From a virus: a stretch of DNA of 64,000 nucleotides. The notes under the pieces are model-generated. The model was not told the origin of the DNA, did not search any database, and worked only from the letters and a program-made list of their open reading frames with translations. Location of the stretch: positions 1 through 64,000 of the IMG/VR virus record IMGVR_UViG_3300032893_000029. One strand, written 5' to 3'. The first letter of the stretch is position 1, and each line of letters begins with the position of its first letter. The position numbers and the translations under genes were made by a program. This document shows, one piece after another, positions 19,687 through 25,456 of the stretch.

Positions 19687-19850
19687 GCCGCGAGCTCCCC
19701 GGATTTTTTCTCGGCCTTCAGCCGATACAGCTTTCCGGCGACTGCATTACGCGATTTTCCGATCGCGCGGCCGATCGTGCTGAAGCTCTTGTCCTCGGCG
19801 TGCAGCGCCTTCAGCACGGTAAGCTGCTCGTCGCTCCATCTCTCATTCAT
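19683..19850 (-). CDS. GcrA-like HTH (N-terminal domain only)
   Basis: WSDEQLTVLKALHAEDKSFSTIGRAIGKSRNAVAGKLYRL matches the GcrA N-terminal signature (W..S.NAV.GK..RL). Confidence 0.75.
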   Translation of the reverse strand: MNERWSDEQLTVLKALHAEDKSFSTIGRAIGKSRNAVAGKLYRLKAEKKSGELAA

Positions 19851-20683
19851 CTCGACAGTTCCTTTCTGACCGCTTCGAGGGATTCGAGTCCCTTCTTTGT
19901 CAGCATGTCCGGCGCCGCGCGGTAAAGCGCCGATACCGTATAGAACCACTGCATCCAGCAGCGGCAGAAAATCTCTTCACCGACCGCGGTGTATTGATCG
20001 TAGAAACCCATCGGACCCGGTTTCACCAGCCCGCGTGCCAGGGCCCAATTCCCGCGGAGCATGAAGATCTGCTCGTCGCGTTCCTTGTGGTCCTCGCGGT
20101 AATTGTAGTGCGGCGTCCGCCAGTTCGAATGCCACATCCCGGCAATGGCGCCGCCGTCTCTGGCGAGGATGTCGGAAATCGCGGCCGTCATCTTGTGCGA
20201 CTGGTCGATGAGCACGCGGCGCTCTTCGAACTTCACCAGCCCAAGCGGTTTGGCGATCTGCGCCCTGGTCTCGGCGCGTTTCGCCACATCGGTTCCGCCG
20301 GCGGGGATCGATGTCGCCCAGCCTTGGAAGCGCTGTAGCGTCTTCGCCATCATCTGGTCGCGGTTCAGTCGGATCAGACCGGCCGATGCCATGATGCGGC
20401 GATCGACTTCGGCCCGAAGTGCCGGGCGGACCCGCTCGATGGTGAAGCGCTCGATTCCGCGATGCATCGCCAGGATGCCGCCGCGATCGATGAGCTTGCG
20501 ATAGGTCTCCTCGAGCACCATTCGAAGCTGCCGCTCGAGCTCGTATTCCGGTGTCAGCGTCCTTTCCGCTGCTTCTTTGATTGCCTTCAGCCAGCGATCG
20601 ACGCGCTCCTGGCTGTCGAAGCCGTGCTCGACAAGATCGTTGATCGCCGCGCGGAGAACATCGGAATAGCTCCGGGCAACCAT
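19847..20683 (-). CDS. Head morphogenesis protein (MuF/SPP1 gp7-like)
   Basis: REDHKERD..GEEIFCRC motif; follows the portal gene. Confidence 0.85.
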   Translation of the reverse strand: MVARSYSDVLRAAINDLVEHGFDSQERVDRWLKAIKEAAERTLTPEYELERQLRMVLEETYRKLIDRGGILAMHRGIERFTIERVRPALRAEVDRRIMASAGLIRLNRDQMMAKTLQRFQGWATSIPAGGTDVAKRAETRAQIAKPLGLVKFEERRVLIDQSHKMTAAISDILARDGGAIAGMWHSNWRTPHYNYREDHKERDEQIFMLRGNWALARGLVKPGPMGFYDQYTAVGEEIFCRCWMQWFYTVSALYRAAPDMLTKKGLESLEAVRKELSR

Positions 20684-22167
20684 CAGGGCCTGGCCGGAAG
20701 CTTCCTGATTTCGGCGACGACGTGCGGCCAGCGATCACTGCTGTCGGCGTGCGAATACGGCGTCGCCTTCGGTTCGCCGGGTTCGGTCATCTGCGTCGGC
20801 GGTTCATAGGTCGCGATGTCCGCGATTTCCAGATGGAGCTCAGCCGGGAAGAATTCCTTCTGCTCGTTGATAACCGACTGGACCCACTCGACGACGGTCG
20901 CTTTGTTCGGCTGATCGCACGCCGGCATGATGACTTCGGCCGCGGCGAGCGTCGACCGCATCAGGAAGTCGTGCTTCTTTGCCTTCTCGCTGTCCGGCTC
21001 CGTCAGGAGATTCGGCCATTTCGTCTTGAAGGAATTCTTCGCCTCATAGAAGAACGTCGTGTAATCGACGCCGCCGTACTGCTCCGGGAACTTCGCCTGA
21101 AGCGACTTATAGAACTGCTTGTTCCAGGCGCGGTGCATGACGATCAGATCGAACCAGGCGAACAGCGATTCCATTTCCTCGCGCTTGTCGTCGATGTAGT
21201 GCGCGACATATTTCGCATCCTCTGACCCCGTCGAGAACGCGTGCGCGAAGGTCTCGTTGTTCAGCATCACCGCCGGCATGTCGTCGCCGGACGCGATGTT
21301 TTCGAGGATGTTGCGGCGCGAATTGCCGAAGGCGCCGTCGAGATTCTGCATGTTCAGCGTCTCGACCTTATCCTTCTCGCCGACTTGCAGAACGTTCTCT
21401 GTCTCCGCTTCCTTCAGGAGATTGCGCTTGATCGAGCCGAACTTCTCCGCGATCCAGTCGACGGCCGATGAGACCGTCTGCATCATGACGACGAGCAGGC
21501 CGGCCTTCTTGACCACCATGTCATCCGTCACCATCGAACTGATGAAGGACTTCAGCGGATAGAGACAGGGCTGGTAGACGCTTCGGCCGGTGAAGCCGTA
21601 AGCCGACGGCGTGTAGCTGATATAGATCGGGTCGCCGTGCATGACGACATGGGCGCGGGAGCGGTGATAGGCCGTCCCGGCGATCGCGATGCCGTCGACC
21701 TTCTGGAAATCGACGGAGTTCGGGTCCTGGTTCAAGACCAGCGAGCCCGCAGTATTCAGCGCGTCGAGGATGTTGAAGCTGATGGCGAGCTCGGCGAGCC
21801 TGTCATAGGGCAGCGGTTCCATCGGATCGATGCCGTTTGCCATCAGGCAGACCGATGAAATGCCGTACACCCGCGACATCGTCTTGACGTTCAGGATGTG
21901 CTTCTTGACCTCGAGCGCCTTCCATTCCTTTTCGAAGGCCTCTTTGAGATCCTGTTCCGGGCCGCCGGTGATCGAGATTTCGCGGGCCTGCGACAGCGCC
22001 AGCTTGATCGGGAAGCGCGCGATCTTCGCACCCAGCGGGTGATATTCGAATATCACCTTGCACATTTCGTAGGACGGTTGCGCTCCGGGCTGGAGCTCGT
22101 CGGTGCAGATGAAACTTTGGAGCGAGGTCCCGAGATTTGCGGGACCGATGACGGACGTTTTCGACAT
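20683..22167 (-). CDS. Portal protein (DUF1073-like)
   Basis: 494 aa after the terminase; SRVYG, YHRSR, GFTGRSVYQ motifs. Confidence 0.85.
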   Translation of the reverse strand: MSKTSVIGPANLGTSLQSFICTDELQPGAQPSYEMCKVIFEYHPLGAKIARFPIKLALSQAREISITGGPEQDLKEAFEKEWKALEVKKHILNVKTMSRVYGISSVCLMANGIDPMEPLPYDRLAELAISFNILDALNTAGSLVLNQDPNSVDFQKVDGIAIAGTAYHRSRAHVVMHGDPIYISYTPSAYGFTGRSVYQPCLYPLKSFISSMVTDDMVVKKAGLLVVMMQTVSSAVDWIAEKFGSIKRNLLKEAETENVLQVGEKDKVETLNMQNLDGAFGNSRRNILENIASGDDMPAVMLNNETFAHAFSTGSEDAKYVAHYIDDKREEMESLFAWFDLIVMHRAWNKQFYKSLQAKFPEQYGGVDYTTFFYEAKNSFKTKWPNLLTEPDSEKAKKHDFLMRSTLAAAEVIMPACDQPNKATVVEWVQSVINEQKEFFPAELHLEIADIATYEPPTQMTEPGEPKATPYSHADSSDRWPHVVAEIRKLPARP

Positions 22168-22430
22168 CAGCCCGGAACGATTCCGGCAAGACCGAAGCCA
22201 GGCGTTTCAGGCCCGACGCGCTCGTGCTCGCACCGCGCATGATAGGCAAGCCAGCGCCCCCACTCGTCGCCACGCCGGTATTGAAAGTTCACCAGCGCAT
22301 CGCGACCACTGAGGCATTTGCGCTTGGTCGGGAAATAGGCGAACTCGATGCTGCACTGATGGACCCGCGGCAGCACGTCCGGAACGCGGCAGTTCGCGAC
22401 CATCACAAGGGCATAGACCCAAATCAGCAT
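22167..22430 (-). CDS. Hypothetical protein
   Basis: 87-aa ORF in the operon. Confidence 0.5.
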   Translation of the reverse strand: MLIWVYALVMVANCRVPDVLPRVHQCSIEFAYFPTKRKCLSGRDALVNFQYRRGDEWGRWLAYHARCEHERVGPETPGFGLAGIVPG

Positions 22431-22573
22431 CGTGTCGCCTTTCTGAGAGACCGAAGCGGGCGATGTTGTGCTCGCCCGCCATTCCAGATCATGCGATCGG
22501 AATTTTCATGCCTCTGGATCTCTGCCGGCACAACCCGGGTTAAAGCTTCGATCCTTCGGCCTCTTGCTCTCAT

Positions 22574-22858
22574 CTATCCGATACCGACCGCGACGTTGTT
22601 CGCGTCGGCTTTGATCTTTTCCCAGACTTCGTTCTCGACGCGGTAGAGATATCGCAAGGCGACTTCGCTGTTCCGCGCGCGGGCCTTTTTGATCAGACGC
22701 CAGCAACGCCGGTACCGCGACCTCAGATGCTTGTTGACCATCCGCCAATGCGGACCGCAGATAATCTCGGTGTTGTTGCCGGCCCATTCCTTCGACGCCG
22801 TCCTTCCGCATCCGATGACGCAGCACGGGATTCGGTCTGGCTTCAGCGGCCGGATCAA
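22574..22858 (-). CDS. Small Cys/His zinc-finger-like protein
   Basis: TTG start overlapping the TerL stop; CCVIGC..ICGPHW. Confidence 0.55.
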   Translation of the reverse strand: MIRPLKPDRIPCCVIGCGRTASKEWAGNNTEIICGPHWRMVNKHLRSRYRRCWRLIKKARARNSEVALRYLYRVENEVWEKIKADANNVAVGIG

Positions 22859-24987
22859 TAGCCCTCCGGATTCCCAAGTGCGAGCACGACGCCGAGCAGG
22901 AAGGCGCAAAGCAAATCGCCGGGCTCCTTGCTGTCCTTCTTTTCGTCGATCCGGAATGTCTCGATGTGGTCGAGCAGGAAATTCCGGGTCTGTCCGCCGA
23001 AATCGATGACCTTGTCGTCGGCCGGCTGCGCGATCTTTATCAGGTCGCGCTCGAGATAGGCCGCAACCGCGGTGGCACGTTCGGCAATACCGATGTTCGC
23101 GATCGCGTCGTTGATCGGCAGGATCGGCAGGCGCCAGCGGGCGCCATGCTGATAGACGACGGCGCCGGTCTCCTTGTTGATGACGAAGATACCGAGCGGC
23201 CTTGTCTGCGCCGGCCTTGCGAGTTCGACGAGTCTGCCGACGGCACGCTTCAGCCATTGTTCCGACAGTGCTGTTCCGACCGGTGCGAGATCCCAATCAA
23301 GGATTGTCAGCGCGTTCCCGCCGACCTTGCGGCGACCGAAATAGACGATGCCGGCGCTATCGTTGTCCCTGCCGGTCTTCACGCCGGAAAACATCACGGC
23401 GAACACACTGTCGAGCAGCCGCGGCGGTGTGACGGGCTGGCCGCGGAAGCGCAGCTTTTCGATGTCGAAGAAGCCGTCCGATGCGCGCGAGCTCAAATAG
23501 TTGAACGCTCCGGCGCCGCCGTCGACTTGGTCATCGTGTCCTTTTGGGAACGCGCAGAGCTCATCGATGAATTCCTCGTTCCAGGCGCCGCGGACCAGGT
23601 AGACATTGCCGGCCTCGCATTGATCGGCGAAGGGTTCGGCCCGGGTGCCTTTGTCGCCGGTTTCCCGATCGGCTCTGACGCGCCAGCCGGCGAGCATCGC
23701 GATGTAGCTCTGTGCCTGTTCCTTGCCGGCCTGGCCGGGGTCCTCGTTCAGATGGATGTGGGTTTCTTTGCCGTCGATCTCGGCCGTCGCTTTGACTTCC
23801 TTTCGGACTTCATGCGCCGACTTCTGAAACCGGTTGACGTTCTCGATGTAGTAGCTGGTGTCGTCGGTCGACATCTTCAGCCCGACGGTGAAATCCGGAT
23901 CGGTGCTGTCCGACGGCGCCGAGGCGGCGAGGTCCCATTTCCGGACACGGCGCGTGATCTTCGCATCCGCGGGAACGCGATCGATGATCTTGCCGTCGAA
24001 CCATTTGCGCTGAAACATCCCGCCTTCGCGGGCCGTCGGGCGCTGCTGATACTGTGCGGCGTAGGCGTGCGGGCCCAAGCCCTTCTTCTGCGCTTCGACC
24101 GCTTCCCGGGGGAAGCGTATCGGTTCCAGAAGCTCGCCTTCCTCCTTGCGCCAATCGGCGCCCCATCTGGTGACGCAGCGGCGCGACTTCTCGAATGTCA
24201 TCGGCAGCATGACAACCACGGTATCCGGCACGACTTCGCGCCAGACCCTGCCGATGTCTCGCGGTCCGGTGCATTGCCAGATACCGACCATTGCCGACTT
24301 CGTCAGGCTGTTCAGTCGGCTCAACGCGCCTTCGCGGAAGAGACGCGTCACTTCGGCAAGCTGGTTCTTGTATTCGACCGTCTTCACCGACAGCGGATCG
24401 TCGATGATGAGACGGTCGCCGCGTTTTCCCATCAGCGAAGCAAACGGTGCGCCGAGGCGCCAGCCCGTTGCAGTGTTCTGGAACGAATAGACGCCGGCGG
24501 TCGTTAATTCGATGAGCGGCCAGCGCTCCTGGTACCAGTCCGACTCGATTAGCGCCTTGCAGCGATCGTTGTCGCGATCGGTCAGGGTCTTTTCGTAGGA
24601 CGTGCAGAGATAGCGATAGGTCGAATAGCCCATCGCCCATTCCCATGCCGGCCAGAACACCGACACGATCAGGCTCTTCATGCAGCCCGGCGGAATCTCG
24701 ATGATCAGTCTCGTGATCTCGCCGCGCGTCACCGCCTCGAGGTGTGCGCAGATCAGTTCGATGTGCGGCGACAGGATGAATTCGGCGCGGGGCTCGAGGA
24801 CATGCCAGGCCTCGCGGATAAACCCGACCAGTGTTTTGCAGCGGTCGCGGCTTTCCTGAAGAAGCTCCTCACGCGTCCTGTTGTGCTGGTCCCTCTTCAG
24901 AGCCTCGCGACGCTGCCTCTCCAGCATCACGCGGGATAGCAAGGCCGATTGAGCGGAGAAGGTCCTGGAGGGTGGCGAACTGTTCAT
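22855..24987 (-). CDS. terL: Terminase large subunit with extra C-terminal nuclease-like domain
   Basis: Walker A PPGCMKS, Walker B LIIDDP, YQQRP, nuclease WDLA..DFT..HDDQVD; about 210 extra aa at the C-terminus. Confidence 0.92.
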   Translation of the reverse strand: MNSSPPSRTFSAQSALLSRVMLERQRREALKRDQHNRTREELLQESRDRCKTLVGFIREAWHVLEPRAEFILSPHIELICAHLEAVTRGEITRLIIEIPPGCMKSLIVSVFWPAWEWAMGYSTYRYLCTSYEKTLTDRDNDRCKALIESDWYQERWPLIELTTAGVYSFQNTATGWRLGAPFASLMGKRGDRLIIDDPLSVKTVEYKNQLAEVTRLFREGALSRLNSLTKSAMVGIWQCTGPRDIGRVWREVVPDTVVVMLPMTFEKSRRCVTRWGADWRKEEGELLEPIRFPREAVEAQKKGLGPHAYAAQYQQRPTAREGGMFQRKWFDGKIIDRVPADAKITRRVRKWDLAASAPSDSTDPDFTVGLKMSTDDTSYYIENVNRFQKSAHEVRKEVKATAEIDGKETHIHLNEDPGQAGKEQAQSYIAMLAGWRVRADRETGDKGTRAEPFADQCEAGNVYLVRGAWNEEFIDELCAFPKGHDDQVDGGAGAFNYLSSRASDGFFDIEKLRFRGQPVTPPRLLDSVFAVMFSGVKTGRDNDSAGIVYFGRRKVGGNALTILDWDLAPVGTALSEQWLKRAVGRLVELARPAQTRPLGIFVINKETGAVVYQHGARWRLPILPINDAIANIGIAERATAVAAYLERDLIKIAQPADDKVIDFGGQTRNFLLDHIETFRIDEKKDSKEPGDLLCAFLLGVVLALGNPEGY

Positions 24988-25456
24988 CCGACAACTTCGT
25001 CAGGTCGAGATTGTCGAACAGGCCCCGTCCATCTGGTCCGGTCAAGGCGAGACGATCGTCCCAAGGGTCTTCGAAGTCCTTGCCGCGGCCGAGCATCCGA
25101 AGTGCGAACTCGATCGCCTTCTGCTCGCCCTTCAGGATGTTGAGATAGAGGGCATCTGCCGCCGACTTCAGAAGCTTGCCCTTCGCCATCCGCAACTGCG
25201 GACCGTAGTGCTTGGCGAGAGTGTCTTCGTCGATGTCGAGGAAGTCCGCGATCACCGATCGCTTGTACTTCAACTGCACATAACGCTCGACGGCAGCGAT
25301 GGTCTCTTCCGTCGGCTGGTGCGGCGGGCGTCCCGTCGTACCCTTTTTGCCTCTGAGCTTCGGCGCTCGTTTCTTGCGATAGGGACCCCGACGTTTCTTC
25401 GGCTCATCAGGGGATCTGGTCCCGCTTTGGCCTTCGCTTGTCGCGTCCTTGCTCAC
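24869..25456 (-). CDS. terS: Terminase small subunit
   Basis: GRPPHQPT, HTH IADFLDIDEDTLAKHY, LTGPDG..DLTKLSDEQ; directly upstream of TerL. Confidence 0.85.
   Translation of the reverse strand: MSKDATSEGQSGTRSPDEPKKRRGPYRKKRAPKLRGKKGTTGRPPHQPTEETIAAVERYVQLKYKRSVIADFLDIDEDTLAKHYGPQLRMAKGKLLKSAADALYLNILKGEQKAIEFALRMLGRGKDFEDPWDDRLALTGPDGRGLFDNLDLTKLSDEQFATLQDLLRSIGLAIPRDAGEAASRGSEEGPAQQDA

Follow-up and report, generated by a model that had tools for sequence, protein, structure and literature searches.

Where does a second nuclease-like domain behind an already complete large terminase (TerL) come from, and what could it be doing there? This question is raised by the IMG/VR virus record IMGVR_UViG_3300032893_000029 (73,635 bases, with direct terminal repeats), of which positions 1 to 64,000 were analysed; this whole stretch of 64,000 nucleotides is called the window below. 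Its large terminase gene (22855..24987, minus strand) is a single open frame of 710 amino acids (aa) that encodes a complete TerL plus an extra C-terminal domain. An earlier note, made from the letters alone, had described 22855-24000 (aa ~330-710, i.e. the first nuclease domain and the tail behind it) as tandem nuclease domains with the second apparently dead, and had proposed that a foreign TerL displaced the native one and kept its C-terminal domain for docking to the portal. The strings quoted there from the first domain (WDLA at aa 351-354, DFT at 364-366, EDPG at 414-417 and HDDQVD at 484-489), from the tail (FFDIEKL at 506-512, VFAVMFSGVKTGRDND at 528-543, LTILDWD at 560-566 and IFVINKETG at 600-608) and from the end of the protein (GDLLCAF at 690-696 and ALGNPEGY at 703-710) are all present in the translation. 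Our analysis favours a hybrid TerL, in which an active first motor is joined to a dead second nuclease that most likely supplies a portal-docking surface, and we hold this reading to be probable.

The results showed that the N-terminal 505 aa form a complete terminase of a lineage other than that of the tail, as had been supposed. The PHROG family phrog_38 (large terminase) spans aa 31-510 of the 710-aa TerL (E 1.7e-57). The ATPase domain (aa ~31-330; 23998..24897, minus strand) is of the phrog_38 type and keeps both Walker motifs, with Walker A K104/S105 and Walker B D196/D197 present in the window and conserved in 78/78 relatives. It is followed by a first nuclease domain of the Terminase_6C type (aa ~335-497; 23497..23985, minus strand; Pfam match at aa 351-489 with 60.2 bits against a cut-off of 22.6, E 3e-16), in which D352, K446, R449, D486 and D489 are kept; these positions are conserved in 77-78 of the 78 relatives. 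On the basis of these intact residues, the first nuclease is predicted to be apparently active. Residues 1-504 match 1,595 phage records, and the best matches to residues ~27-498 come from the Erythrobacter phages ZS04 and R6L, Rhizobium RHph phages and Shewanella phage S0112, with 35-41% identity. In the three that were inspected (ZS04, RHph_Y5A and S0112), the terminases are 491-552 aa long, stop where the window's first nuclease stops and have Mu-type portals alongside. Plain relatives carry 6-40 aa after the last helix, with a median of 29 residues past the match end (n=71), and the fused proteins do not; at this place the window has the junction LSSRASDGFF (aa 498-507; 23467..23496, minus strand).

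The tail itself (aa 505-710; 22858..23475, minus strand) matched no Pfam or PHROG family. A tblastn search with these 206 aa against 50,697 phage records found 14 records, with 31-36% identity, at least 98% query coverage and E-values of 7e-35 to 2e-25. They are Shewanella phage vB_Sb_QDWS, five Yersinia vB_YenM phages, Klebsiella RothC, RothD and Chronis, two records of Pantoea PdC23, an Actinobacillus phage, Rac-SA53 and a record named 'Hujiaoplasma phage'. When three of them were inspected (PdC23, Yersinia vB_YenM_29.18 and QDWS), the match proved to be the C-terminal half of a 424-440-aa terminase, which is followed by a DUF1073 portal and then by the same head gene as in the window. Two of the three have a Terminase_6N ATPase as their N-terminal half, and QDWS matched no terminase family. 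An exhaustive HMMER/phmmer search recovered 272 proteins with the tail domain at E<=1e-3. Given these E-values and this number of homologues, the tail strings are not a matter of chance. Furthermore, the consensus given in the note (VFAVID.A.K.G, IEDK..G, DDLLD...LG...G) agrees with that of the actual relatives. Scans of loci for close relatives with the window tail found none, and a word-index protein search found 1 relative.

The kinship of the tail with terminase nucleases, which the note had proposed, was borne out by profile comparison. A deep hhalign run, with 189 tail-family sequences against 78 first-nuclease sequences, gave 97.9% probability and E 5.2e-13 over 160 columns, pairing D533 with D352 (of WDLA), K634-R637 with K446-R449 and D690-D691-D694 with D485-D486-D489 (of HDDQVD). 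A shallow run with 14 template sequences had returned a probability of 5-9% and was replaced by the deep profiles. In addition, a hidden Markov model of the tail domain matches the first nuclease of phrog_38-type terminases (L046, E 1e-7; L091, E 2e-6), positions 508-702 of the phrog_38 profile match the active domain of the QDWS TerL (E 1e-13), and the ESM feature neighbours of the tail of a further fused protein, P0005, are terminase RNase H-like clusters (scores 0.95-0.96). By homology, then, the tail is a terminase nuclease, with a probable RNase H-like fold. A tandem duplication within the protein was also considered and rejected: BLASTP of the tail against the protein's own first nuclease gave E 10, so the tail is not a recent self-duplication. 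As a side observation on the records matched, OK094664.1 (Shewanella phage vB_Sb_QDWS) and OP650936.1 ('Hujiaoplasma phage zrk29-1') have an equal length of 47,902 bp and identical tail and portal scores, yet bear very different host labels.

The claim that the catalytic residues of the tail are replaced also held, since both the conserved acidic and the conserved basic active-site positions are changed in the window. The residue table comprised 150 listed matches together with the window and P0003, 115 of them with the full domain. Among the matches listed, 39 are normal-length TerLs, all of which have D533, K634, D694 and an acidic residue at 604 (D/E604), and 38 of which have E603. Relative to this consensus, the window carries D533F, E603I, D604N, K634I and D694C, and it also has F670, H674 and G690; in the test set of D533, E603/D604, K634, D690/D691 and D694, only D691 is kept. 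The residues K537, D543, D564, D566, R637, N669 and D691 are retained. We then compared, among the matches listed, 23 degenerate domains (those without the first aspartate) with an active set of 89 domains. Eight sites conserved in at least 85% of the 89 active domains are lost in the 23 degenerate ones (D533, D604, G633, K634, D690, D691, D694 and Y698), and 13 such sites are kept (P522, A530, D543, L563, D564, W578, G608, R637, A638, A656, N669, H670 and L692), N669 being present in 23/23 degenerate domains. The letters that replace the catalytic residues vary from lineage to lineage, as is expected once the constraint on catalytic sites is lifted. These data lend good support to the view that the second domain has lost its catalytic site and kept residues of the fold type.

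The portal gene of the window (20683..22167, minus strand) belongs to the Phage_portal_3/DUF1073 subfamily according to its Pfam and PHROG matches, and is followed by a head morphogenesis gene (phrog_324; 19847..20683, minus strand) in the same gene order as in Chronis-like phages. Among the 50,697 phage records, this portal matches exactly the 14 that the tail matches and no others, with 34-48% identity. We also started from the portal, collecting via alignment A4 80 IMG/VR loci with portals 44-58% identical to that of the window. In 74 of the 80, the gene just upstream of the portal contains the tail domain. Two others have too little upstream DNA to judge; in L190 and L238 there is no adjacent copy and the tail domain lies in a terminase elsewhere in the same record; L239 has the same layout of open reading frames (ORFs) as L238, and its record was not searched for the tail domain; and L197 showed no tail domain in a 32-kb record rated 60% complete. 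The tail lineage thus tracks the portal subfamily, in line with what the earlier note had held. Degenerate domains occur among the 74 only in four fused loci, and the other 70 keep the catalytic Asp and Lys wherever these columns are present (two are cut by the contig end and one has G at 604). As to L238, the gene position directly upstream of its window-type portal is taken by an open frame of 1134 codons (L238:1037-4438) that matched neither Pfam nor PHROG, as is also the case in L239; the terminase of the L238 record is found at G003:C1:32086-32823.

The same fusion, followed by the same portal and head gene, is present in four other IMG/VR records (L008, L010, L011 and L012), the same four as among the 74. 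L010-L012 encode an identical protein, and the fused loci represent three distinct phages. From one stop to the next, the fused frames measure 711-713 codons. When the window, L008 and L011 were compared, identities were 53-66% for the N-terminal terminase, 45-49% for the tail, 56-75% for the portal and 47-57% for the head morphogenesis protein. The similarity between the values of the tail and of the head morphogenesis protein indicates that the tail evolves like a constrained structural gene and not like a pseudogene; at the level of sequence, the second domain appears to be under purifying selection. In a tree of 78 TerLs, the N-terminal parts of the fused ones group as a single clade (support 100) within 75 plain ones, and the portals of the fused TerLs likewise form one clade (support 98) among 52 portals paired with plain TerLs. 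A chimeric origin of the terminase is, in our opinion, well supported. Whether a foreign terminase displaced a native one, as the note put it, or the left arm of one phage was joined to the right arm of another, the two accounts are indistinguishable.

The inactivated domain is found behind other terminases as well. BLASTP similarity between the window TerL and the protein P0004 begins at F506, and the tail of P0004 is 49% identical to that of the window; its first 499 residues are a phrog_2 terminase and show no similarity to those of the window TerL. There are 24 long forms, with at least 400 residues before the domain, among the matches listed. Catalytic residues are retained in 15 of them; 10 of these 15 were scanned by Pfam, of which nine (P0010, P0011, P0017, P0036, P0042, P0049, P0051, P0052 and P0061) have an intein, Hint or LAGLIDADG domain within the ATPase domain and the tenth is extended at its N-terminus. 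The other 9 of the 24, which have no first aspartate, consist of a complete terminase followed by the degenerate domain. Terminases of ~700 aa are hence of two unrelated kinds: those that contain an intein and those with tandem nuclease domains. When seven of these nine and three mid-length degenerate fusions were scanned, Terminase_6C was located directly before the tail in P0005, P0027, P0034, P0145 and P0053, and Terminase_6N was found in P0136 and P0145. P0004, P0064, P0110 and P0139 had no Pfam match; with PHROG, P0004 and P0139 were assigned to phrog_2 and P0110 to phrog_5989, and P0064 to none. Several short 'fragments' start inside the end of Terminase_6C, indicating that they are truncated fusions.

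How often the domain was inactivated and fused was addressed with trees. With P0027, P0034 and P0005 added to the N-terminal tree, three changes of the fused state are needed. A quick tree of the domain has 7 inactivation changes, at least 3 of them forced by well-supported branches. The approximately unbiased test does not reject a single clade of the 23 degenerate domains (p 0.87), and the tree constrained in this way is better by 55.7 log-likelihood units, long branches being liable to draw such rows together. In L266:13-7046 and L269:252-6874, a D5_N/DUF5906 primase-helicase precedes degenerate-tail terminases of 750-777 codons; these two loci, which may be part of satellite-like elements, showed no portal. 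The terminase frame of L026:3564-8403, a sister of the fused clade, measures 707 codons from stop to stop and contains two Terminase_6C stretches, the second of which scores 24.8 bits against the cut-off of 22.6 and appears in a weak alignment to be without the K/R and last Asp equivalents. This terminase, an independent case of tandem nucleases, is followed by a portal of a different family, the SU10 type (PF23899).

How could such a protein arise and work? We propose that two phages recombined inside the terminase gene, one giving the left arm and the other the right arm, and that the in-frame join fell where the portal-linked (Chronis/PdC23/QDWS-like) lineage has its ATPase-nuclease linker. 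Residues 1-~497 would then be a full phrog_38-type motor, made of an ASCE ATPase and an active Terminase_6C RNase H-like nuclease, which would have lost the short C-terminal tail of its plain relatives. In the hybrid, the first nuclease would cut the DNA, and the second, having lost its metal-binding and DNA-contacting residues and kept those of the fold, would most likely serve as a portal-specific docking surface that lets a motor of foreign lineage work on the resident portal. In the assembled motor, the dead domains would add a further ring, with the portal on one side and the active nucleases on the other. We infer the docking from the co-occurrence of tail and portal, from the purifying selection and from published motor structures. 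In HK97, the nuclease ring lies directly below the portal (PMC10359639), and in the D6E study an arm after the last nuclease helix is proposed to mediate assembly on the portal (PMC5727402). Portal docking is made plausible by these two studies and by the phi29 work that is compared below.

Several observations weigh against this reading. In the deep hhalign alignment, the middle acidic motifs of the two families lie 5 residues out of register, and neither the whole protein nor profile A1 matched any sequence in the PDB. In the ATPase of the window (24270-24700, aa 97-239), five sites that are conserved in 74-77 of the 78 relatives and include the 'MQR' motif are substituted (N97E, T186M, S206Y, M237W and R239C), and at all five the consensus residue is present in L008 and L010, which carry the same fusion; the window's copy may therefore be impaired, or it may have compensating changes. 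The plain terminases L013 and L015, which are close to the N-terminal part of the window TerL, pair with other Phage_portal_3 portals and have no extra domain. No window-type portal was found within the locus (~5 kb) of the P0110-type fusions L102, L103 and L161 or within ~5 kb of the Terminase_6N/6C fusions L266, L269 and L270. Because tail and portal are neighbours, their co-occurrence could also reflect co-inheritance of one recombination block. Finally, in cryo-electron microscopy work on T4, it is reportedly the ATPase domain that adjoins the portal.

Could the dead domain have been kept for another role, such as gripping DNA, holding back the active nuclease while DNA is translocated, stabilising the pentamer or binding the small terminase? 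The phi29 C-terminal domain is a vestigial nuclease that retains DNA binding (PMC7672431), the fusions that have no window-type portal nearby fit such a role, and purifying selection is compatible with any function. On the other hand, the basic K634 and often R637 are lost or weakened, which argues against DNA gripping at the old site; the tail lineage follows the portal subfamily, and the origin of the small terminase is not tied to either partner. We thus judge a role apart from the portal to be unlikely. Still less probable, in our view, is that the tail is a functionless remnant of recombination that persists since its clean removal is rare. Such a remnant would agree with catalytic residues that decayed to different letters in each lineage and with a tail that evolves faster than the N-terminal TerL and the portal, whereas it would hardly be expected to stay open over ~206 codons at 45-49% identity in three phages, to conserve the 13 fold-type positions with an invariant N669, or to recur with at least four kinds of partner TerL.

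The remaining explanation, that the fusion is an artefact, i.e. an assembly chimera, a misreading of two genes as a single one or a tandem copy of the nuclease that the protein already has, comes to mind because the source is a metagenomic virus record, and a second sample (X2) yielded identical contigs on either side with none bridging 23484-23723. An independent assembly of run X1, which is possibly the source sample, spans 22700-24300 at depth 42 without any difference, however; the frame contains no stop, the self-comparison of the tail gave no similarity, and the same fusion recurs in related IMG/VR phages from the four other records, from which it follows that it is not an assembly artefact. 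An assembly chimera, the outcome that the earlier note had named as fatal to its proposal, was thus not what the X1 contig and the other records revealed, and we regard this explanation as scarcely credible. The probable reading remains that of a hybrid TerL docking through its dead nuclease. A bolder form of it, in which the dead domain is a portable portal-docking adaptor that stays with the portal/head module while motors are repeatedly swapped, is possible, although we find it rather doubtful; it draws on the occurrence of the dead-domain lineage behind phrog_38-type, phrog_2-type, Terminase_6N/6C-type and other terminases, on the approximately unbiased test, which allows this lineage one origin (p 0.87), and on L026, where a different second nuclease domain accompanies the SU10-type portal. 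If it were true, the portal-less L266 and L269 might load DNA into the capsids of a helper phage, and the nuclease domain, not the ATPase, would set portal specificity in these phages.

The genes around the terminase were also inspected. A probable small terminase of 195 aa (24869..25456, minus strand) is assigned by its position upstream of TerL. Homologues of it lie upstream of the fused TerLs in L008 and L010/L011; it had no match in the phage records, and elsewhere it had weak phmmer matches that adjoin all three terminase types. The gap between terminase and portal (22167-22858, minus strand) holds two small ORFs, where relatives have 3-120 nucleotides. One of 94 aa (22574..22858, minus strand) has a TTG start overlapping the TGA of the terminase and a CxxC...CxxH pattern, and matches phrog_22164 (function unknown) with E 6e-7. 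The other, of 87 aa (22167..22430, minus strand), has a stop overlapping the ATG of the portal gene and matched no family. An Rfam scan of 22100-22900 found nothing. Within the terminase gene, an in-frame TTG at L498 (23494-23496) stands immediately before the start of the tail, with GGAG 11 nucleotides upstream. Separate translation of the tail from this codon is conceivable, but the arrangement may well be due to chance.

Compared with known systems, the closest case is the vestigial nuclease of phi29. The phi29 packaging ATPase gp16 has, like the window protein, an RNase H-like terminase-derived domain that has been retained in the motor with its nuclease activity gone (PMC7672431). However, gp16 is without any active nuclease, and the only C-terminal domain that it possesses is the dead one, descended in place, whereas in the window an apparently active Terminase_6C domain precedes the dead one, which comes from a different terminase lineage. 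The TerLs of Chronis/PdC23 (Certevirus), vB_YenM, RothC/D, QDWS and Rac-SA53 contain the active counterpart of the window tail as their C-terminal half, and these phages share the portal subfamily and the order TerL, portal, head morphogenesis. Unlike the window protein, they have 424-440 aa, with a Terminase_6N ATPase and a nuclease bearing all conserved acidic residues; where they have the ATPase domain, the window has a whole other TerL. The phrog_38-type TerLs of ZS04/R6L, RHph and S0112 have the same Terminase_6C nuclease as the window but end in a short C-terminal tail, with no second domain and with Mu-type portals. The C-terminal arm of D6E and T4 TerLs resembles the window tail in lying at the extreme C-terminus and in being proposed for assembly on the portal (PMC5727402), and the plain relatives of the window's N-terminal part bear tails of this sort; the arm measures ~10-40 residues, whereas the window lacks it and has a domain of ~206 aa instead. 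The intein-bearing TerLs are similar in length (612-887 aa) and share the C-terminal domain family, but the added segment is an intein or homing endonuclease within their ATPase domain, and they retain the nuclease residues. A search of the full-text literature turned up no account of a terminase that bears an extra nuclease domain in inactivated form.

There is a long-standing dispute over which part of the large terminase recognises the portal, and the models for T4 on the one side and HK97/phi29 on the other place different domains next to the portal. The hybrids described here amount to a natural domain swap, in which the complete motor of one lineage presumably works on the portal of another. 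Since only the nuclease domain was kept from the resident terminase, and its catalytic site is gone, this swap points to the nuclease as the portal-specific part. It would give phage mosaicism a route across the terminase-portal interface, and would be a second, independent case in which a nuclease domain has become a motor part without catalytic function. For annotation, the two unrelated classes among terminases of ~700 aa serve as a warning.

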